Assembly: GCA_046757025.1 (NCBI GenBank)
Contig: JBHHXN010000005.1
Span: 25,989-89,988 of the forward strand
Reading direction: 5' to 3'
From: a bacterium
Lineage (GTDB): Bacteria; Zhuqueibacterota; Zhuqueibacteria; Oceanimicrobiales; Oceanimicrobiaceae
DNA: 64,000 nucleotides
The position numbers and the translations under genes were made by a program. Positions 31,553 to 43,075 of this stretch are shown one piece after another. The first letter of the stretch is position 1; each line of letters starts with the position of its first letter. Under the pieces are notes generated by a model. That model was not told the DNA's origin. It worked only from the letters and a program-made list of their open reading frames with translations, and made no database searches.

Positions 31553-31625
31553 ATCGCATAGAATTAATTTCAATAAAACCTCATTAGCTTTTATTTATTA
31601 AACAGATAGCATAATTGGTTAAAAG

Positions 31626-31641
31626 TGGTACAAGCTTTGCT
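31626..31641 (+). promoter_or_regulatory. sigma-54 (-24/-12) promoter
   Basis: TGGTACAAGCTTTGCT, exact GG-N10-GC spacing. Confidence 0.7.
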
Positions 31642-31710
31642 TTGAAGCTCCACGGAGAAATCATAATGATCTTCATTGAAAAATCACCAAGACTCATGAG
31701 GGCTGAAATC

Positions 31711-32676
31711 ATGAAAACACGGATGCTTGCTTGCCTGATTTTAGGCGTAGTTATGGTTTCGCCGCTATTTAGCAGCGAAACGGCTGTCATCATCAAAGTG
31801 ACGGGTTTGTATGGAATCATCAACAAAGGTACCAACCAGGGACTGCAAGAAGGCCAAGTATTTTATGTCAAAAGAGCAGTGTCTTCGCAATGGCAGGATG
31901 TGGCTAAAGTGAAAGTGATTCGAACCACCGCCAACCGAGCCGCTGTGGAACAAATCACCCATTCCAGAAAATTTGTCATTCAGAAAGGGGACAAGTTGTT
32001 TGCCAACAAGGAGGTTGTTTTCACGCCGCCGGTTGTGCCGAAGAAAGCGGCGGCGCCACCGACGCCGGTGGTAAACAAGCGGCTAGGAAAAAGGCCTGCA
32101 GTCGAACCCATTACCGAACCAGTTAATAAACAGAATGATGTGTCCCTTCCGGAGCCGGCTTATACTTATCAACGCAAAAGCTATCTACGGGAACCGTGGG
32201 TGAGTCTCAATCTGGGTTCCATTTTTCCGAGTGGTGAATTAGGGAATGCCATTTCACCCAGCATAAAATTTGGCGCCAGCTACATGGTGTCTACCGGCAA
32301 CAACTTAAATCTGGGAATTGAAATCAATCGAACTTTTTTTAGCGGTAGCGAATTAGGTAACAGTAATTTGACCGGCAGCAGCATCGAGTCGTCCTCGATA
32401 TTGGAAGCCATCGTGGTGTTTCAAAAATACTTTGGAAATCACTTTTTTATCGAAACCGGCGGCGGCATTTACCGACCCAAAATCAAAACCATTTCGGTGG
32501 ATAAGATCGAATCTAGTTTTTCATCTTCCAATTTTGGCTTGTTTGGCGGAACCGGATTTTTTATCCCCACCAGTAAATATGCCGGATTTACTTTGAAAGG
32601 CAGAATGCACAACTACTTTGATGAAACCACCAAGCAGTATTTCGGTTTGAGTGGCGGTTTTCGTTTTAAAATGTAA
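31711..32676 (+). CDS. Exported protein: FlgT-C-like beta domain, Pro-rich linker, C-terminal outer-membrane beta-barrel
   Basis: Signal peptide; INKG..QGL..G..F.V...VA.VKV...IQKGD; PPVVPKKAAAPPTP linker; amphipathic strands ending GGFRFKM. Confidence 0.6.
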   Translation: MKTRMLACLILGVVMVSPLFSSETAVIIKVTGLYGIINKGTNQGLQEGQVFYVKRAVSSQWQDVAKVKVIRTTANRAAVEQITHSRKFVIQKGDKLFANKEVVFTPPVVPKKAAAPPTPVVNKRLGKRPAVEPITEPVNKQNDVSLPEPAYTYQRKSYLREPWVSLNLGSIFPSGELGNAISPSIKFGASYMVSTGNNLNLGIEINRTFFSGSELGNSNLTGSSIESSSILEAIVVFQKYFGNHFFIETGGGIYRPKIKTISVDKIESSFSSSNFGLFGGTGFFIPTSKYAGFTLKGRMHNYFDETTKQYFGLSGGFRFKM

Positions 32677-33152: not shown

Positions 33153-33357
33153 TAACATTTCTCACTTCGTGACGTGATTCATAAACCAACTGTTAATTAA
33201 GAGGTTACTGATTGTTCTACTTTCACCCTGAGCGGAGTCGAAGGGTGACTAGTTCTGGATGTAATTCATGCTTCGACTCCGCTCAGCATGAAGTGAACCT
33301 GTCGTATCTAATTATTTAATATGAACATAGTTTCATAACTTAAAGTGAGAAATGTTA
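33153..33357. mobile_element. MITE-like element with perfect 15-bp ends TAACATTTCTCACTT and internal REP doublet
   Basis: 15/15 terminal IR; inner inverted pair TCACCCTGAGCGGAGTCGAAG (33223) / CTTCGACTCCGCTCAGCATGA (33271). Confidence 0.75.
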
Positions 33358-33378: not shown

Positions 33379-33817
33379 GTAACGATTCAGTTGTTAGCTA
33401 TCATTCCTGCGAATGCAGGAATCTCCTCCGACATCCATTGAAACAAGTTCAGCGTACAAGTCTTGCCATTCTGGATACATTTCTCGAGGGTCATTTATTC
33501 ATGATTTTTTCCCGAGTTGTCATGGCAGTACTATCGGATGTTTGTTGAAACCACACCAGCTTGTGGCAATGGTGGTTTTTATTAAATCCCTGGCTCAATC
33601 CCTTTTTGTGTTCATCTACACGTTAAAAAAGGTTGTTCGTAACCTGATGTCAAGTGCGTTGTTATGTTTGTTTGACAATATGTACAATTATTAGTTTTCC
33701 ATAATTCTTATACCTGAATTTGTTTCACTTGATTGAACCAGAAAGAATTCTTTTCTGACTTTTGTCCATTGAATCGGGAGACTCCTGCATTCGCAGGAGT
33801 GACACCTGAGTAGCTCC
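33379..33817. mobile_element. Composite element: GTAAC.ATTCAG-type ends, inverted REP pair, GIY-YIG remnant
   Basis: REPs TATCATTCCTGCGAATGCAGGAATCT (33399-33424) and AGACTCCTGCATTCGCAGGAGTGACA (33779-33804), 23/26 inverted match; degenerate outer ends. Confidence 0.7.
33445..33702 (-). pseudogene. Decayed GIY-YIG nuclease gene
   Basis: Manual translation across 2 frameshifts and 4 stops: MEN**LYILSNKHNNALDI / VTNNLF*RVDEHKKGLSQGFNKNHHCHKLVWFQ...REKIMNK* / MYPEWQDLYAEL, matching the small GIY-YIG family pattern YVYIL.N...LYIGVT..L.RRV.EHK...GFT.KY...KLV.....REK..K.W...NP.W.DL. Confidence 0.85.
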
Positions 33818-33857: not shown

Positions 33858-33886
33858 TTGACTAAATGTTAAAAATTCCTTATAAT
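33858..33886 (+). promoter_or_regulatory. sigma-70 promoter of nuo operon
   Basis: TTGACT-17 bp-TATAAT. Confidence 0.85.
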
Positions 33887-33944
33887 GTGCCTTGAAAATT
33901 AACCTGCTCGATTATGACATACCCACAGACACAAAAGGATTTTT

Positions 33945-34373
33945 ATGCTATTTAATTTTGCCGCGATCTTAGTGTTTTTGCTTTTTGGTGCATTGTTTGT
34001 CGGCATAAATTTTCTTTTGTCCAGATTACTACAAACACGAAATCCTTTTCCCAGTAAAATCAGTACTTACGAATGTGGAGAGATTCCCGTAGGTGGCGGC
34101 TGGCTGCAATTCAATATCCGTTTTTACGTCATTGCGCTGATCTTTTTGATATTTGAAGTTGAAATCGTGTTTCTTTTTCCTTGGGCCGTGGTGTTTAAAA
34201 AGCTGGGCGCCTTTGCTTTTGTCGAAATGATGATTTTCATTGTGATATTGCTGGTGGGCCTAGCTTATGCCTGGGTGAAAGGCGATCTGGAATGGGACAC
34301 GCCCACGAGCGTTCCCGCTGCTGAGCACCAAAATTTGATCACCAAATCCCTTACCAAAGAACTGGCTTCTTAA
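33945..34373 (+). CDS. nuoA: Complex I membrane subunit A
   Basis: [39 protein letters not shown]. Confidence 0.96.
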
Positions 34374-34405
34374 ATCATGACTGGAAAGGAATCGAAAAAA
34401 AATTA

Positions 34406-35461
34406 ATGAGTGAATTTATTTCGGAGTTAGCCAGCAGTCAATCCTTTGTAAGTAGTCTTCCTGAATTATTAGTAATTACTATTTTTTTGCTTTTATCCGC
34501 ACTTGTTTTTGCAGTGCTGGCGGCGCTGTTGGCGCTATTTGGCGTTTATTTAGAGCGCAAAATTTCAGCGCACATGCAGGATCGCCTTGGGCCCATGTAT
34601 GTGGGCAGCTGGCATGGTTGGGCGCAAACATTAGCGGATGCCGTAAAACTGCTCATCAAAGAAGATATCGTGCCCGAGCGTGCGGATAAAAAGCTGCATC
34701 TGCTGGCGCCTTTTCTGGTTTTCGCGGCAACCCTGGCAGCGTTTGCCGTACTTCCGTTTGGAAGAAGGCTTATCGTGAGCGATTTGAATATCGGCATTTT
34801 ATACGTCATCGCGATTTCGTCGTTCGTGGTGGTAGGCATCATTCTGGCGGGTTGGGCTTCCAACAACAAATGGTCTTTATTGGGCAGTATGCGCTCCGCC
34901 GCGCAGGTGGTGAGTTTTGAGATCCCAGCGGCGCTGTCAGTGCTGGTGGTGGTGATGGCCGTGGGTACTATGAACCTAGGCAGCATCGTAGTGTTTCAGG
35001 ATGGGGGGATTCACAAATGGCTGGTCTGGAAGTTTTTTCCTTTTAATTTCCTCGCTTTTTTAATTTATTTCGTAGCATCCCTGGCGGAAGTCAACCGAGC
35101 GCCTTTTGACATCCCGGAAGCCGAATCAGAAATTGTGGCGGGATTTCACACGGAATACAGCGGCATGAAATGGGCCATGTTTTTTCTGTCTGAATATGCC
35201 AACATGTTTTTAGTGGGCGTCATCGGTGCCACGCTTTTTCTCGGCGGCTGGTCCAGTCCGTTTGGCGATTTCATGAATGGCGGAGGATTTTCCGTTTTCT
35301 GGATTTGTCTAAAAGCCTTCGGGCTGATTTTTCTGCAGATGTGGCTGCGCTGGACCTTACCGCGTGTGCGGGTGGACCAGCTCATGTACACCTGCTGGAA
35401 AGTGTTGACCCCGTTTGCTTTTTTGGCTATGATCGGTGTGGGAATTTACATGATTATATGA
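34406..35461 (+). CDS. nuoH: Complex I membrane subunit H
   Basis: [59 protein letters not shown]. Confidence 0.97.
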
Positions 35462-35465
35462 GACT

Positions 35466-35963
35466 ATGAATCTATTTGATATACTTTTTTACGCATTTGC
35501 TGCACTGGCTGTGTCCTCGGCAGCGATTATGGTGTTTTCGAAAAACGTGGTCTATTCTGCGGTGGGCCTGCTGTTTACGTTTGCCGGCGTTGCGGGGATC
35601 TATGTACTGTTAGCCGCCGATTTTTTGGCCATCGTGCAGATACTGGTATATGTGGGCGGCATTTTAATGCTGATTTTGTTTGGCATCATGCTTTCCCAGA
35701 GAATCACCAATGTTGAATTTCGAACCGGTGCGTTGCAGCTTTTTCCAGCGGTGCTGGTGGTCGGCGGGGTGCTGGCCATTTTGATCAGAATGATCTACAA
35801 AACGCCCTGGAAAACCGTACAAAATATCGATTTTAATCCATCCACCGAGGCCATCGGATTTTTGCTGATGACCGATTATTTGATTCCGTTTGAAATCGTT
35901 TCCGTGCTGTTGTTGGCTGCTTTGATCGGCGCCGCTTTCATTGCCAGAAAGGAGCAAAGTTGA
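35466..35963 (+). CDS. nuoJ: Complex I membrane subunit J
   Basis: N.VYSA, ADFLAIVQILVYVGGI..L.LFGIML, YLIPFEIVSVLLL. Confidence 0.95.
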   Translation: MNLFDILFYAFAALAVSSAAIMVFSKNVVYSAVGLLFTFAGVAGIYVLLAADFLAIVQILVYVGGILMLILFGIMLSQRITNVEFRTGALQLFPAVLVVGGVLAILIRMIYKTPWKTVQNIDFNPSTEAIGFLLMTDYLIPFEIVSVLLLAALIGAAFIARKEQS

Positions 35964-36271
35964 TGACCATTACTTTAACTCATTATCTGACTTTAAGCGC
36001 CGTTCTCTTTTCGCTGGGTCTTTTGTGTGTCATCACGAAAAAGAATGCCATCGCCGTGCTCATGGGAGTGGAATTGATTTTAAATGCCGCCAATATCAAC
36101 TTCGTGGCCTTTGCGCGATTCGTGGACACCGACTTGGACGGACAGGTGTTTGCTATTTTCGTGATCGTCACCGCAGCGGCAGCGGCGGCGGTTGCTCTGG
36201 CCATCGTTTTGAATTTATATGAACGACTAAAATCCATCGATCTGGATGAAGCGGATTCGTTAGCCCGGTAG
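35963..36271 (+). CDS. nuoK: Complex I membrane subunit K
   Basis: KNAI..LMGVELILNAANINFVAF, GQVFAIFVI; TGATG overlap with nuoJ. Confidence 0.95.
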   Translation: MTITLTHYLTLSAVLFSLGLLCVITKKNAIAVLMGVELILNAANINFVAFARFVDTDLDGQVFAIFVIVTAAAAAAVALAIVLNLYERLKSIDLDEADSLAR

Positions 36272-36309
36272 GATACGGAGTTGAATTCACTGAAAGAGTA
36301 AAATAGTCT

Positions 36310-38298
36310 ATGATTACCAACGCCATTTTGATTTTACTTTTGCCGATATGTGCATTTACCATTCAAATTTTTCTTGGTAAAAGATTGCCGCGAAAAGGGG
36401 ACTGGCTGCCGACCGGCGCCATGTTTATCGCGTTCTTTTTAGCGGTTCCCATTTTTTGGCAAGCCCTTTCGCAGTATGATCCCGACTTCAAAATTACCCG
36501 GACCTGGAATTGGATCGATTTTGGCGCCGTGTCGGTTTCGTTCGGAATCCACATCGACAATTTGACCGCGATCATGTTGATCGTGGTGACTCTGATCAGC
36601 GCGCTCATTCATCTCTATTCCATCGGCTACATGCACGGCGATGCGCGCTACAGCCGGTATTTTGCTTATTTATCGCTGTTTTCTTTCTCCATGCTAGGCC
36701 TGATTTTAGTCGATAACTTTTTCGGCATTTACATTTTTTGGGAATTGGTGGGATTATCGTCCTACCTGCTCATCGGATTCTGGTTTGAAAAAGATTCGGC
36801 TGCCAACGCCGGCAAGAAGGCTTTTATCACCAATCGTATAGGGGATGTGGGGATGTTCGCCGGCATTCTGATTATATTTACCTCTCTGGGCGTGTTAAAT
36901 TTTGAAGAAGTTTTCAAAAACGTGGCCGACGGTCATCTCAGTGGCGGATTGTTGACCGCCGCCGGCATTTTGATCTTTTGCGGCGCCGTGGGCAAATCAG
37001 CGCAATTTCCACTGCACGTTTGGCTGCCCGACGCCATGGAAGGTCCGACGCCGGTCAGCGCGTTGATCCACGCCGCAACCATGGTTGCGGCCGGAGTGTA
37101 TCTGGTGGGCCGCGTTTTCGTATTTTTCACCGCCGATGCGCTGCTGGTGATCGCCTACATCGGCACCATCACCGCTTTTATGGCAGCTACTATTGCTATC
37201 GTTCAAAAAGATATCAAACGAGTTTTGGCTTATTCTACCATAAGCCAGCTGGGGTATATGATGGTCGGCCTGGGTACGGGAGGGTATACCGCAGGCCTTT
37301 TCCATCTCACCACACATGCATTTTTCAAAGCCCTGCTGTTTCTGGGCTCGGGCAGCGTCATTCATGCTGTGCACACCCAGGACATGAGTGAAATGGGTGG
37401 GTTGCGCAAAAAAATGCCCATCACGTTTGTGACATTTTTAATCGCAACTTTAGCGATTTCCGGGGTGCCTCCTTTGTCCGGTTTCTGGAGCAAAGACGCC
37501 ATTTTAGCGGCATCCCTTGAGTTTGGCATGACGCACCCGCAGCATTTAATCATTTTTATCGTTATGTTGTTATCTGCAGGCATTACCGCTTTTTACATGT
37601 TTCGATTGGTTTATCTAACTTTTACCGGCAGTGCAAGAGTAAAAGAAAAATTTGATCATGCCCACGAATCGCCGCTGGTGATGACCCTCCCGTTGTCGAT
37701 TCTGGCGCTCTTTTCAGTGGGTACCATCTGGTGGGGATGGTATGCGCATTTGATGCCTACACCCGAATTAACTTCGTATGCCAGTGTGGTCGGACACGCG
37801 GTGGAATCACACGCAGGCGCACACGAATCCTCCGCACATCTGGCCCACAACATCGCCCTGGTGCTTTCTGTGGTGGTAGCGGGGTTGGGAATCCTGATTG
37901 CCACTGCCACCTACTACTGGAAAAAAATCTCCGCAGAAGCCTGGGGCAGGCGATTGCAGCCAATTTACAAATTATTGTGGAATAAATATTATTTCGATGA
38001 GCTGTATGGCGCCACCGTCATCAAAGCCACCTTGCTTTTTAGTAAATTCTCAGCGCTGTTTGATCTGCGATTCATCGACGGCTTCGTCAACGGTACGGCT
38101 CGATGGACCGCGAAGTTATCTTTTGCTGAGGGCAAATTTGATTTGAAAATCATCGATGGCCTGGTCAATCTCGTGGGTAGAATCGTGCAATATTTTGGGG
38201 CGCAATTACGGGAAATTCAAACCGGCAAAGTCCAGAGTTATATTTTGATGGCGTTAGCTGGCATCGTTGCGCTTTATATCATTCAGCTTTTACCTTAA
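36310..38298 (+). CDS. nuoL: Complex I membrane subunit L with lengthened transverse helix
   Basis: YSIGYM, WELVG..SYLLIGFW, GKSAQFPLHVWLPDAMEGPTPVSALIHAATMV, THAFFKALLFL, QTG; duplicated FD..IDG.VN unit. Confidence 0.97.
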   Translation: MITNAILILLLPICAFTIQIFLGKRLPRKGDWLPTGAMFIAFFLAVPIFWQALSQYDPDFKITRTWNWIDFGAVSVSFGIHIDNLTAIMLIVVTLISALIHLYSIGYMHGDARYSRYFAYLSLFSFSMLGLILVDNFFGIYIFWELVGLSSYLLIGFWFEKDSAANAGKKAFITNRIGDVGMFAGILIIFTSLGVLNFEEVFKNVADGHLSGGLLTAAGILIFCGAVGKSAQFPLHVWLPDAMEGPTPVSALIHAATMVAAGVYLVGRVFVFFTADALLVIAYIGTITAFMAATIAIVQKDIKRVLAYSTISQLGYMMVGLGTGGYTAGLFHLTTHAFFKALLFLGSGSVIHAVHTQDMSEMGGLRKKMPITFVTFLIATLAISGVPPLSGFWSKDAILAASLEFGMTHPQHLIIFIVMLLSAGITAFYMFRLVYLTFTGSARVKEKFDHAHESPLVMTLPLSILALFSVGTIWWGWYAHLMPTPELTSYASVVGHAVESHAGAHESSAHLAHNIALVLSVVVAGLGILIATATYYWKKISAEAWGRRLQPIYKLLWNKYYFDELYGATVIKATLLFSKFSALFDLRFIDGFVNGTARWTAKLSFAEGKFDLKIIDGLVNLVGRIVQYFGAQLREIQTGKVQSYILMALAGIVALYIIQLLP

Positions 38299-38345
38299 TT
38301 TGAACGTACAAAGTCGAACCCCGATTTTTCCCAATTGTTTAGAGG
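38288..38345. repeat. Truncated left end of element family B overlapping the nuoL stop codon
   Basis: TTTTACCTTAATTTGAACGTACAAAGTCGAACCCCGATTTTTCCCAATTGTTTAG aligns with 9348-9406. Confidence 0.6.
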
Positions 38346-38382
38346 GGCCAAATAAATGGGAGGTAGAAAGGATAAATAAAAG

Positions 38383-39957
38383 ATGGAAAATATGATTTTA
38401 ACTCTGATAACATTTCTTCCAATTGTAGGCGTTCTGTTCATTCTATTTGTACCCAAAGATAATAAACAGGTTGTCCGGATCATTGCGGCGGTGTTTACCG
38501 GACTGCAGTTGGTGCTCGCTATCTGGATTTTCATGAACTTCGATCGCAGCACCGCAAATTTCCAGTTTACTGAACAGTACAAATGGATACCATCTTTTAA
38601 TATCGAATACTTTATGGGCATCGACGGGCTGAGCGTGCCCATGGTTTTGCTCACGGCTTTTTTGTCGTTCATTTGCATTTTTGCCTCCTGGGGCATTGAG
38701 AAAGGCGTCAAAGGCTATTTTGCCATGTTTTTGCTGCTGGATACCGGCATGATGGGGGTTTTCTGCGCTCTGGATTTCTTTTTGTTTTACATTTTCTGGG
38801 AAGTCATGCTGCTGCCCATGTACTTTCTCATCGGTATCTGGGGTAGCCCTTCCCGCAGGGATGAAGACGGTATGGTACGCGGCGGTCCGTATGCTGCGAT
38901 TAAATTCTTTCTTTACACCCTGTTCGGCAGCGTACTGATGTTGTTAGCCATGCTGGTGTTCTATTTCAACGTTAAGGACCCGGTATCCGGCGGCCACACT
39001 TTCAATATGCTGCACATCATGAATCAGGCCAACCACGGCGGCGTGCTTACAAATTTCGATATGAGATTGGTTCTGTATGTGGCCCTGTTCATCGGTTTTG
39101 CTATTAAGGTACCGGTTTTTCCCTTTCACACGTGGCTGCCGGACGCGCACGTGGAAGCGCCCACGGCCATCAGCGTAATATTAGCCGGGGTACTTTTAAA
39201 AATGGGTACGTACGGCATGCTGCGCATCAGTTTTCCCATGCTGCCAGATGCCATGAAATATGAATATTTTGCTTACGGTATGGCCATACTGGGGCTCATC
39301 AACATCCTCTACGGCGCATTTTGTGCCATGGCTCAAAAAGACCTGAAAAAGTTGGTGGCCTATTCGAGTATCAGTCACATGGGCATTGTGCTTTTAGGCA
39401 TGTCCGGTTTAACCTCGCTGGGCATGAACGGCGCCGTGATGCAGATGTTCAACCACGGTACCGGCACCGCCATGCTCTTTCTTCTGGTGGGCGTGATTTA
39501 CGACCGAGCACACCACCGACAGATCGATGGTTTTGGAGGGCTGGCTGTTCGTATGCCCATTTACGCAGCCGTGGTCAGTTTGGCCTTTTTTGCAGGGCTG
39601 GGTCTGCCGGGACTTTCAAGCTTTATCAGCGAAGTCTTTTCGTTTCTGGGTGCGTTTGGCTCCACCATGTTTAATTTGAAAGCCATCACGGTGATTTCCA
39701 CCATCGGAATTATATTGACCGCAGGCTACTTTCTGTGGACGTTTCAGCGCATGTTTTTAGGCGAATTGAATCCTAAATACGCAGACTTGCCAGAAATAAA
39801 CGGGCGGGAATTATTTACGCTTATTCCAATCGGAATCCTTATCATTATTTTGGGCGTGTATCCGGCGCCGTTGTTGAGTTTGATTAAAGTATCCTTGAAC
39901 AATTTAGTGGACATTGTGGTGACAACGGGAACGCCAACATTGTTGGGTTTACAATAA
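38383..39957 (+). CDS. nuoM: Complex I membrane subunit M
   Basis: GIDGLS, FWE.ML.PMYFLIG.WG, KVPVFPFHTWLPDAHVEAPT, AYSSISHMG. Confidence 0.97.
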   Translation: MENMILTLITFLPIVGVLFILFVPKDNKQVVRIIAAVFTGLQLVLAIWIFMNFDRSTANFQFTEQYKWIPSFNIEYFMGIDGLSVPMVLLTAFLSFICIFASWGIEKGVKGYFAMFLLLDTGMMGVFCALDFFLFYIFWEVMLLPMYFLIGIWGSPSRRDEDGMVRGGPYAAIKFFLYTLFGSVLMLLAMLVFYFNVKDPVSGGHTFNMLHIMNQANHGGVLTNFDMRLVLYVALFIGFAIKVPVFPFHTWLPDAHVEAPTAISVILAGVLLKMGTYGMLRISFPMLPDAMKYEYFAYGMAILGLINILYGAFCAMAQKDLKKLVAYSSISHMGIVLLGMSGLTSLGMNGAVMQMFNHGTGTAMLFLLVGVIYDRAHHRQIDGFGGLAVRMPIYAAVVSLAFFAGLGLPGLSSFISEVFSFLGAFGSTMFNLKAITVISTIGIILTAGYFLWTFQRMFLGELNPKYADLPEINGRELFTLIPIGILIIILGVYPAPLLSLIKVSLNNLVDIVVTTGTPTLLGLQ

Positions 39958-39968
39958 CGATAAAAAAA

Positions 39969-41486
39969 ATGGATTATTCAGCGACTCTACAAAATAACCT
40001 CAACAGCTTAAGTTATTTTATTCCGGAGCTTATTCTTACCGGAGTAATCATTACCATCATCATCGCAGATTTGGCTCTGCAAAAAAAATACAAGCCCTGG
40101 ACTTCCATCATCGCTCTGGCGGGACTGGTTATAGCTTTTATTGCGGTGCTTGGGCAGTATAAATTGGGAAGCCGAACGATTTTCAACGATATGATGGTGG
40201 TGGATCCGTTTGCGCTGTTTTTCAAGCTGCTGTTTCTAGGCTCAGCGCTGCTGGCGGTGTTTCTTTCCATCGGCTCCATTGAATTGTCCGGTCGCCCCAT
40301 CGGGGAATATTTCACCTTGCTGGTCGCCACAACTCTGGGGATGTTTTTTATGGCCTCCGCTACCAATCTGTTGACCATTTTTATATCAATTGAAATGGTC
40401 AGCGTCACCTCATTTATTCTGGCGAATTATTTGAAAACCCGCCGACGGTCCAGTGAAGCGGGATTAAAATACGCCATTTATGGTGCCTTCTCTTCTGGTT
40501 TGATGTTGTACGGTATCTCCTTGATTTACGGCATCACCGGCACGCTGAACATAAATGAAATCGCCAGTGTGCTGAACGCGACCAATCCGGATAAGTTGCT
40601 CCTATTCGTTTCCGTGCTGCTGATCATGGCCGGTTTTGGTTACAAAATTGCTTCGGTGCCTTTCCACTTCTGGGCGCCGGACGTGTATGAAGGCGCGCCC
40701 ACGCCCATTACCGCGTTTTTCTCAGTGGGGCCAAAAGCGGCTGGCTTTGCGTTGTTGATCCGGTTTTTTAACGTAGCATTGGTCTCGCATGGCACAAATG
40801 GCGAAACCTCAGTCTGGCATGCGCTCAATGGACTGGATTGGCCACAGCTTTTAGCGGTCATTGCAGCGGCAACCATGACTCTGGGAAATTTGACCGCCAT
40901 CGTTCAAAACAATATTAAACGATTATTAGCTTATTCCAGTATTGCCCATGCCGGCTACGCACTCATGGGCGTGGTGGTGCTTTCCGAGCAAGGCATCCAT
41001 GCCACCATGTTTTACCTGGTGGTATATTATGTGATGAACATCGGCGCCTTTTTAGTGGTCATCGTAAGCCAAGAAATCGTGGGCAGCGAACGTATTGATG
41101 ATTACAAAGGTCTGGTCTGGCGTGCACCCATTCCCGCCATCGCCATGGGTGTTTTCCTGTTTTCGCTAACCGGTTTGCCGCCAACGGCGGGATTCATCGG
41201 TAAGTTTTATTTGTTTGCCGCCTTGGTCAAAGGCGGCCCGGCGTTTTATTGGTTAGCGGTTGTGGGCATCCTCAATAGCGTGATTTCGCTCTATTATTAT
41301 GCTCGAATTTTGCGAGCCATGTTTATCGATAAAAAGGAAGAAAAAGCGGTGAAAACTTTAACCGTCTCTCCATATTATGTGGCCTTGCTTGCGGTATTAG
41401 TTATTCCAACCATTTTACTTGGTGTTTACTGGGCGCCGTTAGCGAATTTTGCAAATTATTCATTTGAGTTTTTCAAAGCGTTCTAA
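39969..41486 (+). CDS. nuoN: Complex I membrane subunit N
   Basis: PELIL, SSEAGLKY, KIASVPFHFWAPDVYEGAPTP, KRLLAYSSIAHAGY, GLPPTAGFIGKF. Confidence 0.97.
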   Translation: MDYSATLQNNLNSLSYFIPELILTGVIITIIIADLALQKKYKPWTSIIALAGLVIAFIAVLGQYKLGSRTIFNDMMVVDPFALFFKLLFLGSALLAVFLSIGSIELSGRPIGEYFTLLVATTLGMFFMASATNLLTIFISIEMVSVTSFILANYLKTRRRSSEAGLKYAIYGAFSSGLMLYGISLIYGITGTLNINEIASVLNATNPDKLLLFVSVLLIMAGFGYKIASVPFHFWAPDVYEGAPTPITAFFSVGPKAAGFALLIRFFNVALVSHGTNGETSVWHALNGLDWPQLLAVIAAATMTLGNLTAIVQNNIKRLLAYSSIAHAGYALMGVVVLSEQGIHATMFYLVVYYVMNIGAFLVVIVSQEIVGSERIDDYKGLVWRAPIPAIAMGVFLFSLTGLPPTAGFIGKFYLFAALVKGGPAFYWLAVVGILNSVISLYYYARILRAMFIDKKEEKAVKTLTVSPYYVALLAVLVIPTILLGVYWAPLANFANYSFEFFKAF

Positions 41487-41587: not shown

Positions 41588-43075
41588 ATGAAGAATCACA
41601 TATTGCGTTCATATAGAAATGTCATTTTAAGCTTCCTGGCCATTACCTCGGGTCTCATATTATTGGCCGGTATTAGTTCCAAAAAAACCGCTCATCGAAT
41701 CGACGTACGTATTTTTACGCCCACCAAAAAGGATTCTGTTCGTTTAAAGGTGTTCAATATCAAAATCAAAGGTAAAACCACCGCCGGCTTTGTGGACGCG
41801 GAAGTTTCAGAATCGGAATTAGAGAAGATCAGAAGAAGCGGATTTCAGGTGGCGTTGATTTCGGAGCTAAAAAAGAATACCACTATTCCGCCCTCGTACC
41901 GACCTTTAGAAGAGATCGAGCGAAAATTGCGGTACTATCAGTCAAAATATTCTGAGATTTATTCTCTGGAGAAAATAGGAAAATCCACTGCACAGAAACG
42001 TCCAATATGGGGTGTGAAAATATCCGATAACGCCGAGGTACGCGAAGATGAGCCCCGGATTTTATTTGTAGGTGTGCACCACGCCAGAGAGCCCATCGGC
42101 GCCAACATTTGCCTTGAAATAATTCGCGCGTTATGCAGCAATTATGGTAGAGATAAAAGAATTACCAGCTGGGTTAATTCCCTGGAAATTTGGCTGGTAC
42201 CGGTGGTGAATCCAGACGGTTACCAGTACGTGATGAACAGCGACTTGTCGTTTCCCTGGTGGCGAAAAAATTTGCGCGATAATGATAGAAACGGTAAATT
42301 CAATCCCCTTTACGATGGTGTGGATCTCAATCGCAATTATGAATACAACTGGAACGAAGGCGGTGACGGCAAACCGAGCAGTTGGTTTTATCGCGGCTCC
42401 AGACCGTTTTCCGAATCGGAAACGCGGGCCATTCAAGAGCTGGCCATGCGAGAAAACTTTTTGTTCGGGGTTTCTTACCACAGTTACGGCGAATCTATTT
42501 TATTCCCCTGGGGCAATTACCATCGACCACCAGATATCGAGTTGATCGTGGAGGTTGCCAGTCAAATGGCATCCCGAATCAAAAAGGAATCCGGGCACGG
42601 ACATTATGCCATTTTGCCTTTAAATGGCCGGGTGGGACAAAGCTCCATCTGGATGTACGCAGAATTGAACATCATGGATTATATTGTGGAAGTGGGAACC
42701 GAGTATTTCCCAGCAGAAAAAAATATTCCAGATATTTTAAAAGAAAATTTAAAAGGGGCCTTTTATTTATTTGATCGGGCTTTCGGCTCCGGCATCACAG
42801 GGCATGTATTTGACATGAACACGTTACAGCCACTTCTGGCGGAAGTTGAAGTCAAACAATTTGCCGCCCGATACGTTAAACCCAGGAAATCGGATGCGCA
42901 TTTCGGCGGTTTTTACCGGCTTTTGAAACCTGGAACTTTTACGCTAGAAATAAATAGCAATGGTTACAAAACCAAAATTATCAAAAATGTTCGGGTTAAA
43001 AATGGTGAAATGACTCAAATCGAAATCGGAATGCATAAAATTAAAAAAAATATCACAAACGGTATTTCAAATTAA
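41588..43075 (+). CDS. M14 family zinc carboxypeptidase with C-terminal carboxypeptidase regulatory-like domain
   Basis: HHARE, NPDG, WRKN, GVDLNRN, SYHSY motifs. Confidence 0.92.
   Translation: MKNHILRSYRNVILSFLAITSGLILLAGISSKKTAHRIDVRIFTPTKKDSVRLKVFNIKIKGKTTAGFVDAEVSESELEKIRRSGFQVALISELKKNTTIPPSYRPLEEIERKLRYYQSKYSEIYSLEKIGKSTAQKRPIWGVKISDNAEVREDEPRILFVGVHHAREPIGANICLEIIRALCSNYGRDKRITSWVNSLEIWLVPVVNPDGYQYVMNSDLSFPWWRKNLRDNDRNGKFNPLYDGVDLNRNYEYNWNEGGDGKPSSWFYRGSRPFSESETRAIQELAMRENFLFGVSYHSYGESILFPWGNYHRPPDIELIVEVASQMASRIKKESGHGHYAILPLNGRVGQSSIWMYAELNIMDYIVEVGTEYFPAEKNIPDILKENLKGAFYLFDRAFGSGITGHVFDMNTLQPLLAEVEVKQFAARYVKPRKSDAHFGGFYRLLKPGTFTLEINSNGYKTKIIKNVRVKNGEMTQIEIGMHKIKKNITNGISN

Follow-up and report, generated by a model that had tools for sequence, protein, structure and literature searches.

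A seven-gene membrane-arm operon, nuoAHJKLMN, and its likely nuoB-C-I-D partner: a split 11-subunit complex I without the NuoK E72 glutamate

Complexes of the NDH-1 type with 11 subunits have been described in Ignavibacterium album, Melioribacter roseus and Caldithrix abyssi (IALB_1622-1632, Mros2379-2369 and Cabys_1521-1531; PMC3362086, PMC3534657, PMC5317091). In these descriptions the 11 genes form one operon without a dedicated nuoEFG, a 14-subunit complex is encoded in the same genome, and ferredoxin is put forward as electron donor, as a suggestion only. The NDH-1 of cyanobacteria and plastids (PDB 6HUM, 7EU3), a ferredoxin:plastoquinone oxidoreductase, is also built on 11 core subunits, lacks an N module and carries extra ferredoxin-binding subunits according to PMC4758237. 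Split complex I operons are already known: one is named in PMC4758237, and for Bdellovibrionota an identical seven-gene order nuoAHJKLMN, with the peripheral genes elsewhere, is reported in PMC13147790. Gene layout by itself is therefore of little weight. The first-pass annotation of the DNA analysed here had taken co-encoding of B, C, D and I as the norm, which is true of the nearest relatives outside the split lineage but not of these published layouts.

The window, a stretch of 64,000 nucleotides, contains seven open reading frames on the + strand at 33945-41486 that correspond to nuoA, H, J, K, L, M and N. Residues given below as equivalents follow E. coli numbering.

33858..33886, + strand: predicted sigma70-type promoter, TTGACT-17-TATAAT, 11/12 consensus
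33945..34373, + strand: nuoA, 142 aa; Glu at the E. coli D79 position (codon 34155-34157)
34406..35461, + strand: nuoH, 351 aa; acidic TM5-6 loop intact; Phe at the E. coli Y156 position (codon 34916-34918)
35466..35963, + strand: nuoJ, 165 aa; Y59 equivalent retained
35960..36271, + strand: nuoK, 103 aa; E36 equivalent retained, E72 equivalent replaced by Ala
36182..36184, + strand: NuoK codon 75 (Ala), the E. coli E72 position; non-acidic in 42/42 split-lineage genomes
36310..38298, + strand: nuoL, 662 aa; 7/7 tested axis residues retained
38383..39957, + strand: nuoM, 524 aa; E144, K234, K265 and E407 equivalents retained
39969..41486, + strand: nuoN, 505 aa; E133, K217, K247 and K395 equivalents retained

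In profile searches NuoH, K, L, M and N scored over the curated NCBIfam cut-offs, and NuoA and NuoJ matched below theirs. Most of what the first-pass annotation had read from this operon stood up. The content of membrane subunits only, in the order A-H-J-K-L-M-N, agreed with the reading frames and NCBIfam names, as did the gaps of 32 bp (A-H) and 4 bp (H-J); the remaining gaps are -4 (J-K), 38 (K-L), 84 (L-M) and 11 bp (M-N). The retained YECG of NuoA and PEAESE of NuoH were located at residues 42-45 and 237-242. The peripheral genes had been called cleanly absent and undecayed, and tblastn of the whole window with 10 queries (B, C, D, I, E, F and G of both complex I sets of the genome, E<=1) gave 0 peripheral-subunit matches in the operon or its surroundings, so no relic of them lies there. 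Identity as an Mrp Na+/H+ antiporter was rejected: NuoL, M and N pass the Nuo cut-offs and score far below those for Mrp, and NuoA, H and J are present. Compared with the 14-subunit NuoA-N of E. coli, each of the seven membrane subunits can be aligned, as can nearly all of the axis residues tested, but NuoEFG is not linked and three residues differ (NuoK E72 to Ala, NuoH Y156 to Phe, NuoA D79 to Glu).

Profile searches of the genome revealed two complete complex I sets, one of 14 subunits in three pieces and one of 11 subunits in two operons. The latter consists of the window nuoAHJKLMN and one nuoB-C-I-D operon (BCID) on contig C106. With 2 nuoA, 2 nuoH, 2 nuoD and 6 antiporter-like genes in the genome, and 2 complex I nuoB and 2 nuoI genes all within those same clusters, both sets pair off without spare parts. 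The single nuoEFG is located within the 14-subunit operon, between nuoCD and nuoH, and no dedicated NuoEFG genes were found for the 11-subunit set. PF01512 had two matches: the nuoF of the 14-subunit operon and a weakly aligning 441-aa protein, which has no nuoE or nuoG neighbours in the ORF list. In the C106 set, NuoB carries the CCAIE N2 motif with its tandem Cys and NuoI two 4Fe-4S Cys motifs; the NuoD quinone-site residues H56, H60, Y109 and D162 are invariant in 32/32. Judged from sequence, the C106 operon is the likely partner of the window arm. A search for a junction joining C39 to C106 showed no overlap of contig ends with any other contig, and PF11867 matched only a C108 fragment.

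That the peripheral module would be encoded elsewhere had been foreseen in the first-pass annotation, which went on to propose a free pumping arm docking several alternative or non-canonical modules. The separate, conserved promoter of the arm fits this proposal, as does the concept of the Q module as a platform for several donors (Moparthi and Hagerhall; PMC3144371). However, the genome search that the annotation had suggested (nuoBCDI, nuoEFG and group 4 modules) yielded exactly two Q modules, each with a membrane arm to match, one nuoEFG and no group 4 module. No third Q module was found in the genome profile searches. The two PF00346 matches, candidates for a group 4 [NiFe] hydrogenase of the Ech or Mbh type, are both NuoD, each without the two CxxC nickel motifs; in the regions of those motifs, C106 NuoD carries just one Cys each, at 104 and 413. 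Tree distances to 36 other taxa correlated at 0.90 (Spearman) when the window arm was matched with BCID and at 0.01 when the modules were swapped, and both halves are found in 32/36 genomes having either. We consider docking of alternative modules highly improbable, and an ordinary BCID cluster as the arm's one partner the better account. The concept in PMC3144371, as set out there, concerns donors onto the Q module and not Q-module swapping.

Trees were built for 50 taxa from concatenated B+C+D+I (839 columns) and A+H+J+K+L+M+N (2320 columns) by quick searches without bootstrap, with L069 left out. In both trees the window arm and BCID fell within one 26-row group, which also holds unsplit 11-gene operons from Ignavibacteria, Melioribacter, Caldithrix and Marinimicrobia. 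The outgroup loci had been gathered by likeness to the window NuoH, a choice that biases the sample towards unsplit operons of that clade. The SH-aLRT of this group was 100 for the Q module and 90 for the membrane arm; branching within it was unresolved, and the 14-subunit set fell in a separate group in both trees. Agreement among single-gene FastTree trees was seen for B, D, H and L, with lower resolution in the A, C, I, M and N trees; support was taken only from the concatenated trees, the single-gene labels being possibly shifted by re-rooting. The two phylogenies are thus congruent and, with an ordinary partner cluster, describe a simple split operon, the outcome that the first-pass annotation had named as contrary to its own proposal.

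Close orthologues of the window NuoH were found in 34, of the C106 NuoD in 34 and of both in 32 of 133 genomes of the phylum, all incomplete assemblies. The two genes are on different contigs in 30 genomes and side by side in 2, which belong to another class and retain an intact 11-gene operon. A survey of relatives for the AHJKLMN order, also suggested in the first-pass annotation, showed that the split layout is kept in 33/33, with subunits 57-92% identical across orders. Whereas the 11 genes of I. album, M. roseus and C. abyssi are described as one operon, here B-C-I-D have left that operon, changed their order and come to lie behind the 14-subunit one. The split presumably arose independently of that in Bdellovibrionota, a different phylum outside the tree sampling; the partner here is a four-gene BCID without EFG. 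A split kept in 33/33 relatives, with BCID under its own predicted promoter behind the operon of another complex, had no counterpart in the literature searched.

The promoter ahead of nuoA, described as near-consensus in the first-pass annotation, is the joint best of 23 promoter-like sites, a total not above chance (17.7 +/- 4.2 in shuffles). A matching site precedes nuoA in 22/28 split-lineage loci vs 0.9 expected, by a pattern composed after viewing the sequences, in agreement with the earlier view of a separately regulated arm. The membrane-arm and BCID operons would be transcribed from separate promoters, and their products would assemble.

The location of BCID raises the question of its electron input. 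In 25/29 loci, from f1, f2, f8 and f10 genomes, it lies <=2 kb downstream of the nuoEFG-containing operon nuoA-B-CD-E-F-G-H-I, and nearly all genomes having this 11-subunit set carry nuoF too. The split enzyme could thus borrow the single NuoEFG of the other complex, giving two NADH:quinone isoenzymes with one NADH input; Syntrophobacter has a single nuoEFG and the remaining genes in duplicate, as reported by Spero et al. (PMC4453560). Several observations make such sharing unlikely. BCID has its own promoter-like site before nuoB in 24/28 loci vs 1.3 expected, and a hairpin with T tract follows nuoD in 15/19 loci, judged by eye. The DNA before nuoB is unrelated in 4 genomes, and in one of them it lies on the opposite strand. 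The C106 NuoI lacks 5 extra residues of nuoG-linked NuoI, and most green sulfur bacteria are described as having the 11-subunit set only (PMC3362086). In genome G011 (96% complete) the 11-subunit set is present at normal identity, and a close nuoF, a second nuoH and NuoCD were not found. A G011 contig ends within nuoI and nuoB was also not found there, so an assembly gap is possible.

We assign a probability of about 70% to the reading that the operon is the membrane arm of an 11-subunit complex I without NuoEFG genes of its own, with BCID as likely partner, predicted to oxidize ferredoxin, reduce menaquinone and pump protons. In this likely ferredoxin:menaquinone proton pump, ferredoxin reduced by 2-oxoacid:ferredoxin oxidoreductases (6 POR_N matches in the genome) would deliver electrons at NuoI; from there they would reach the N2 cluster of NuoB and then menaquinone, which would be reduced at NuoB/D/H, with NuoL, M and N pumping and NADH being handled in parallel by the 14-subunit set. 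Genome profile searches also found a classical menB above cut-off and haem-copper oxidases; the futalosine pathway (PF02621) was not found in the window genome, 1 of 7 searched.

The C106 NuoI shares two indels with the NuoI of the 11-gene operons of Ignavibacteria (I. album and M. roseus included) and Caldithrix: a 22-residue segment before the first cluster and a 39-residue loop. The short segment also matches the ferredoxin-fed NdhI of NDH-1, whereas nuoG-adjacent NuoI has 27-28 residues there. Among PDB entries, NuoI matched NdhI best and NuoK matched NdhE best, both narrowly. NuoI showed no clear patch for binding ferredoxin. A Lys-rich tail serving as ferredoxin dock, a lead that came from FpoI, was rejected: the C-terminal extension starts Glu-rich, turns Lys/Ala-rich and is no more than mildly basic, its net charge ranging from -1 to +4 across split-lineage loci, and the loop is near neutral. 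A 14+11 pairing of complexes with ferredoxin as suggested donor is what the papers on I. album, M. roseus and C. abyssi describe.

Another conceivable input is the EtfD/FadF-like membrane iron-sulfur protein encoded after nuoD in the examined f1 and f2 loci (68-81% identity), which would channel electrons from ETF and acyl-CoA oxidation into this complex. Among proteins of solved structure, mycobacterial EtfD is the closest to it (9OJN, E 1e-125), ETF genes are present in the genome, and the gap from nuoD to the gene had no promoter match in 19/19 loci. The same gap holds the terminator-like hairpin, however, and close orthologues occur in 18 genomes only, all of one order, a distribution that rules the protein out as an obligate partner. 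In f8 and f10 genomes, which carry this split complex too, homologues reach no more than 36% identity, and homologues of ~40% are found in many genomes without the complex. EtfD is moreover described as having its own haem and menaquinone site, so that it need not touch complex I (PMC13083937). A dedicated role here is scarcely probable, and ferredoxin remains our preferred donor.

In 42/42 split-lineage genomes, NuoK is without the glutamate found at E72 in E. coli. This residue is retained in 24/24 intact 11-gene near relatives, in NdhE of NDH-1 and in 120/121 background clusters, counted after 29 of 150 representatives not aligning through TM3 (19 E, 1 G, 1 S, 8 unaligned) were left out. 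One NuoK comparison omits L189, L196, L198 and L069; L189 is the diverged NuoK of G011, with Gln at E72. The family of the window genome also has NuoH Y156F and often NuoA D79E, and the genome's own 14-subunit set retains all three residues. Each change was probably one ancestral event. Neither the E72 loss in 42/42 genomes nor Y156F with frequent D79E in this family had a counterpart in the literature searched.

These residues lie on a proposed path, E157-D79-E36/E72-NuoN (PMC13324432), and the E72 loss may alter the coupling of electron flow to pumping. Taken to the extreme, the arm could be decaying or uncoupled, transferring electrons without pumping. This is very unlikely: the other axis residues checked in L, M, N, J and H show no variation across the lineage, a strict scan showed only 6 such changes over 11 subunits, and the subunits keep their identity across orders. 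NuoN E133 is retained and reported to be redundant with E72 (PMC13073174), and Y156 is reported as non-essential for pumping (bioRxiv 10.64898/2026.04.14.716442). In the preferred pumping enzyme, the quinone site would be connected to NuoN without E72, probably through NuoK E36 and NuoN E133; E36 and the tested central-axis residues of NuoL, M and N are retained. NuoK E72 mutants reportedly keep partial activity. More tentatively, and doubtful as it is, the lineage may have re-tuned its complex I by dropping E72, followed in one family by Y156F and often D79E, to pump fewer H+ per electron pair or to favour reverse flow from menaquinol to ferredoxin beside the canonical 14-subunit enzyme.

It is debated how quinone reduction is coupled to pumping through the E-channel and the two NuoK glutamates, a question that the papers concerned address with E. 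coli point mutants. In this lineage a strongly conserved enzyme is without one glutamate of the pair in all 42 genomes, and one family naturally has the Y156F change engineered in the 2026 preprint. Normal pumping by the enzyme would mean that NuoK E72 can be dispensed with in vivo; a lower proton yield or a preference for reverse flow would reveal how an 11-subunit complex I is adapted to its donor. Should the re-tuned reading be true, the lineage would offer a test case from nature for the disputed fourth proton channel. For annotation, BCID genes behind a 14-subunit operon call for caution, as they belong to the other enzyme.

The genome from which the window comes (94.8% complete, 374 contigs) holds two complete complex I sets. 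Family searches returned two nuoA, two nuoH, two nuoD and six antiporter-like genes; of four PF01058 matches, two were nuoB and two adjoined [NiFe] hydrogenase large subunits, as judged from the ORF list. The search for nuoBCDI and nuoEFG that the first-pass annotation had proposed yielded two sets and a single copy of nuoEFG, within set 1, the 14-subunit complex. The other eleven subunits form set 2.

Set 2, window 33858-33886: promoter, 11 of 12 consensus bases
Set 2, window 33945-41486, forward strand: nuoAHJKLMN
Set 2, contig C106: nuoB-C-I-D (BCID)
Set 1, contig C39: nuoA-B-CD-E-F-G-H-I
Set 1, contig C44: nuoJ-K-L-M
Set 1, contig C61: nuoN

The first-pass annotation had described seven membrane-subunit genes behind a near-consensus promoter, with the peripheral genes cleanly absent. 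NCBIfam naming identified the seven as NuoA, H, J, K, L, M and N, tblastn with ten peripheral subunits as queries found no relics in or near the operon, and the spacings were as described (A-H 32 bp, H-J 4 bp). Promoter-like sites in the region (n = 23) were not above chance (17.7 ± 4.2); the match 5' of nuoA recurred in 22 of 28 loci of the split lineage, in which the membrane arm is parted from BCID, vs. 0.9 expected for a pattern composed after the sequences were viewed.

The arm had been proposed to dock a peripheral module encoded elsewhere, possibly several alternatives or a non-canonical one. The module is indeed encoded elsewhere, on C106, and it is the counterpart of the window arm. 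The named records closest to the window NuoH carried the titles Calditrichaceae, Ignavibacteria, Melioribacter, Caldithrix, Marinimicrobia and Acidobacteria. In most of them the eleven genes form an intact operon (A-B-C-D-H-I-J-K-L-M-N), and the B, C, D and I of these operons match the C106 copies best. In concatenated trees (quick IQ-TREE searches, 50 taxa, no bootstrap, outgroups gathered by NuoH), the Q module (NuoB, C, D, I) and the membrane arm of set 2 both fell in one 26-row group with intact operons (SH-aLRT 100 and 90, respectively), the branching inside it being left open, and set 1 lay outside. Tree distances over 36 other taxa correlated at 0.90 when each arm was compared with the Q module of its own set and at 0.01 when the modules were exchanged. 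Among 133 genomes of the phylum, 34 had a close orthologue of the window NuoH, 34 of the C106 NuoD, and 32 both. In two of the four mismatches (G018, G032) the remainder of the arm lies at contig breaks; the other two (G017, G022) gave no NuoD match. Of the 32 genomes with both genes, 30 carry them on separate contigs; in the other two (G041, G042) they are neighbours. These two belong to another class, keep the 11 genes in one operon and cluster with Caldithrix. Judged from these trees, the source is probably a bacterium of KSB1/Calditrichota type. The window operon encodes the membrane arm of an 11-subunit complex I that is split and has a single, ordinary partner module, and the idea of alternative or exotic partners therefore fails.

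The split is old and conserved. The survey of relatives for the AHJKLMN order found nuoA adjoining nuoH, with the peripheral genes absent from the locus, in 33/33 relatives from five families (f1, f2, f3, f8, f10); seven genomes of families f11 and f6 have a more distant intact 11-gene operon in place of the split set. BCID lies at most 2 kb behind set-1 nuoI in 25 of 29 loci, and the remaining four, the source genome among them, have other DNA upstream of nuoB. A promoter-like site precedes nuoB in 24/28 loci vs. 1.3 expected (internal controls 0/20, 2/30 and 0/27), and 15/19 loci, scored by eye, show a GC-rich hairpin plus T tract behind nuoD. BCID looks like a separate transcription unit, a prediction from these signals. 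Other partial layouts were seen in an Ignavibacteria record (L116, A-H-J-K-L-M-N), in Acidobacteria and Acidimicrobiia records (L071, L075, L098, L109; A-B-C-D-H-I-J-K-N, without L and M) and in NC10 records (L082, L083; A-C-D-H-J-K-L-M-N, without B and I).

In set 2 the N2 ligands, the quinone-site residues and the tested axis residues of L, M and N are all retained. In the C106 NuoI, 22 residues precede the first cluster and a loop spans 39 residues, both features shared with Ignavibacteria and Caldithrix NuoI. Ferredoxin-fed NdhI has the same short segment, whereas nuoG-linked NuoI have 27-28 residues there; 27-31 are likewise found in NuoI of Bacteroidota 11-gene operons, so the short segment is not required. 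Given these features, six POR_N matches, menB and haem-copper oxidases in the genome, we predict that set 2 is a proton pump passing electrons from ferredoxin, the inferred donor, to menaquinone, alongside the NADH enzyme. A point against a ferredoxin dock is that the C106 NuoI is not strongly basic in either its tail or its loop. For the 11-subunit enzymes of I. album, M. roseus and C. abyssi, ferredoxin as donor was likewise a deduction (PMC3362086, PMC3534657, PMC5317091), and for the Desulfitobacterium enzyme a route of cytoplasmic electrons to menaquinone has been proposed, donor undecided (PMC11238625). Possibly set 2 instead shares the NuoEFG of set 1, which would fit the gene position of BCID. 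An EtfD-like protein, encoded 3' of nuoD, was rejected as an obligate partner because its gene is restricted to one order.

The unusual part of set 2 is its proteins, not its layout. A nuoAHJKLMN cluster has been reported in Bdellovibrionota (PMC13147790), scattered nuo clusters are said to be common (PMC3144371), and in 86% of genomes with complex I its genes are co-located (PMC4453560). When all 11 subunits were screened for conserved charged residues that the split lineage has lost, one such loss lay inside a membrane helix, at NuoK position 75, aligned to E. coli E72. The 42 split-lineage genomes have Gly (16), Ala (14), Ser (9) or Asn (3) there, and all 42 keep E36. Glu occupies the position in 24/24 intact near relatives, 51/51 other NuoK (leaving out the diverged set-1 NuoK of genome G011), 7/7 distant intact operons in the class and 120/121 representatives of 50%-identity clusters (29 of 150 left out, their alignment not spanning the helix). 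Phe replaces NuoH Y156 in 19/28 split-lineage sequences, all of f1 and f3, vs. 3/109 others, and NuoA D79 is Glu in 14/29. In the source genome set 2 has all three changes and set 1 none. The three residues lie on a proposed E157-D79-E36/E72-NuoN path (PMC13324432). Two further reports describe E72 as redundant with NuoN E133 (PMC13073174), which set 2 retains, and Y156 as a latch for direction, not essential (bioRxiv 10.64898/2026.04.14.716442). Split and E72 loss fall on the same branch, so their agreement counts as one observation, not a correlation. A literature search of main texts outside subscription found no account of this lineage's split or of natural E72 loss, nor did the accessible part of the Zhuqueibacterota paper (PMC11683472). 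The lineage-wide NuoK E72 loss sets this complex apart and merits biochemical study.

The C106 NuoD (L149:14723-15973) has Cys at 104 and 413 in place of conserved Thr and Glu. Both occur in 19/19 f1 loci and 0/13 other split-lineage loci, a single origin; the pair might form a disulfide or bind a metal close to the former nickel pocket.

G011 (96% complete) retains set 2; searches there gave no close nuoF, no second nuoH and no NuoCD, nor the set-1 ABCDEFGHI genes. Its set-1 nuoJKLMN (L189:4726-10453) is intact and fast-diverged (42-57% identity vs. 52-81% in three other genomes), with Gln at the E72 position. It is a possible orphan arm after partner loss; the assembly also lacks nuoB, so an assembly gap is possible too.

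Set 1 of the source genome is in three pieces (L151:4920-11259, L152:3605-5101), with nuoN parted from JKLM; JKLMN was unbroken in four relatives checked. Both in the source genome and in three relatives from f1, the gene before set-1 nuoJ encodes a 533-aa PF16980 transporter. Genes resembling 2-oxoacid dehydrogenase E1 alpha/beta, named by eye, lie just 5' of set-1 nuoA (L150:6935-8952), and E2-like and lipA-like genes 3' of the EtfD-like gene (L149:9243-11492; also noted for L053 and L157), so that the nuo genes seem to be embedded in a dehydrogenase cluster. Behind set-1 nuoI come an hsdM-like gene and a small pair of genes (L150:17162-19734), and C106 starts with a peptide end resembling the HsdR C-terminus (L149:18237-18296; compared by eye with a C108 fragment), which suggests a putative restriction-modification island between C39 and C106.

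In most f1 relatives the window operon is likewise flanked by a 353-aa ORF without Pfam or NCBIfam match (upstream, window 31615-32676) and an M14 carboxypeptidase (downstream, 41588-43075). Palindromic REP-like inverted repeats, seen by eye, occur in the long intergenic region upstream of the promoter (33220-33300, 33405-33805), and C106 apparently has a similar element that separates nuoB from its promoter. In f10 genomes (L047, L056, L182, L183) small unrelated ORFs (Uma2, DUF2887, YhgA-like, methyltransferase) stand between nuo genes, the order unbroken.
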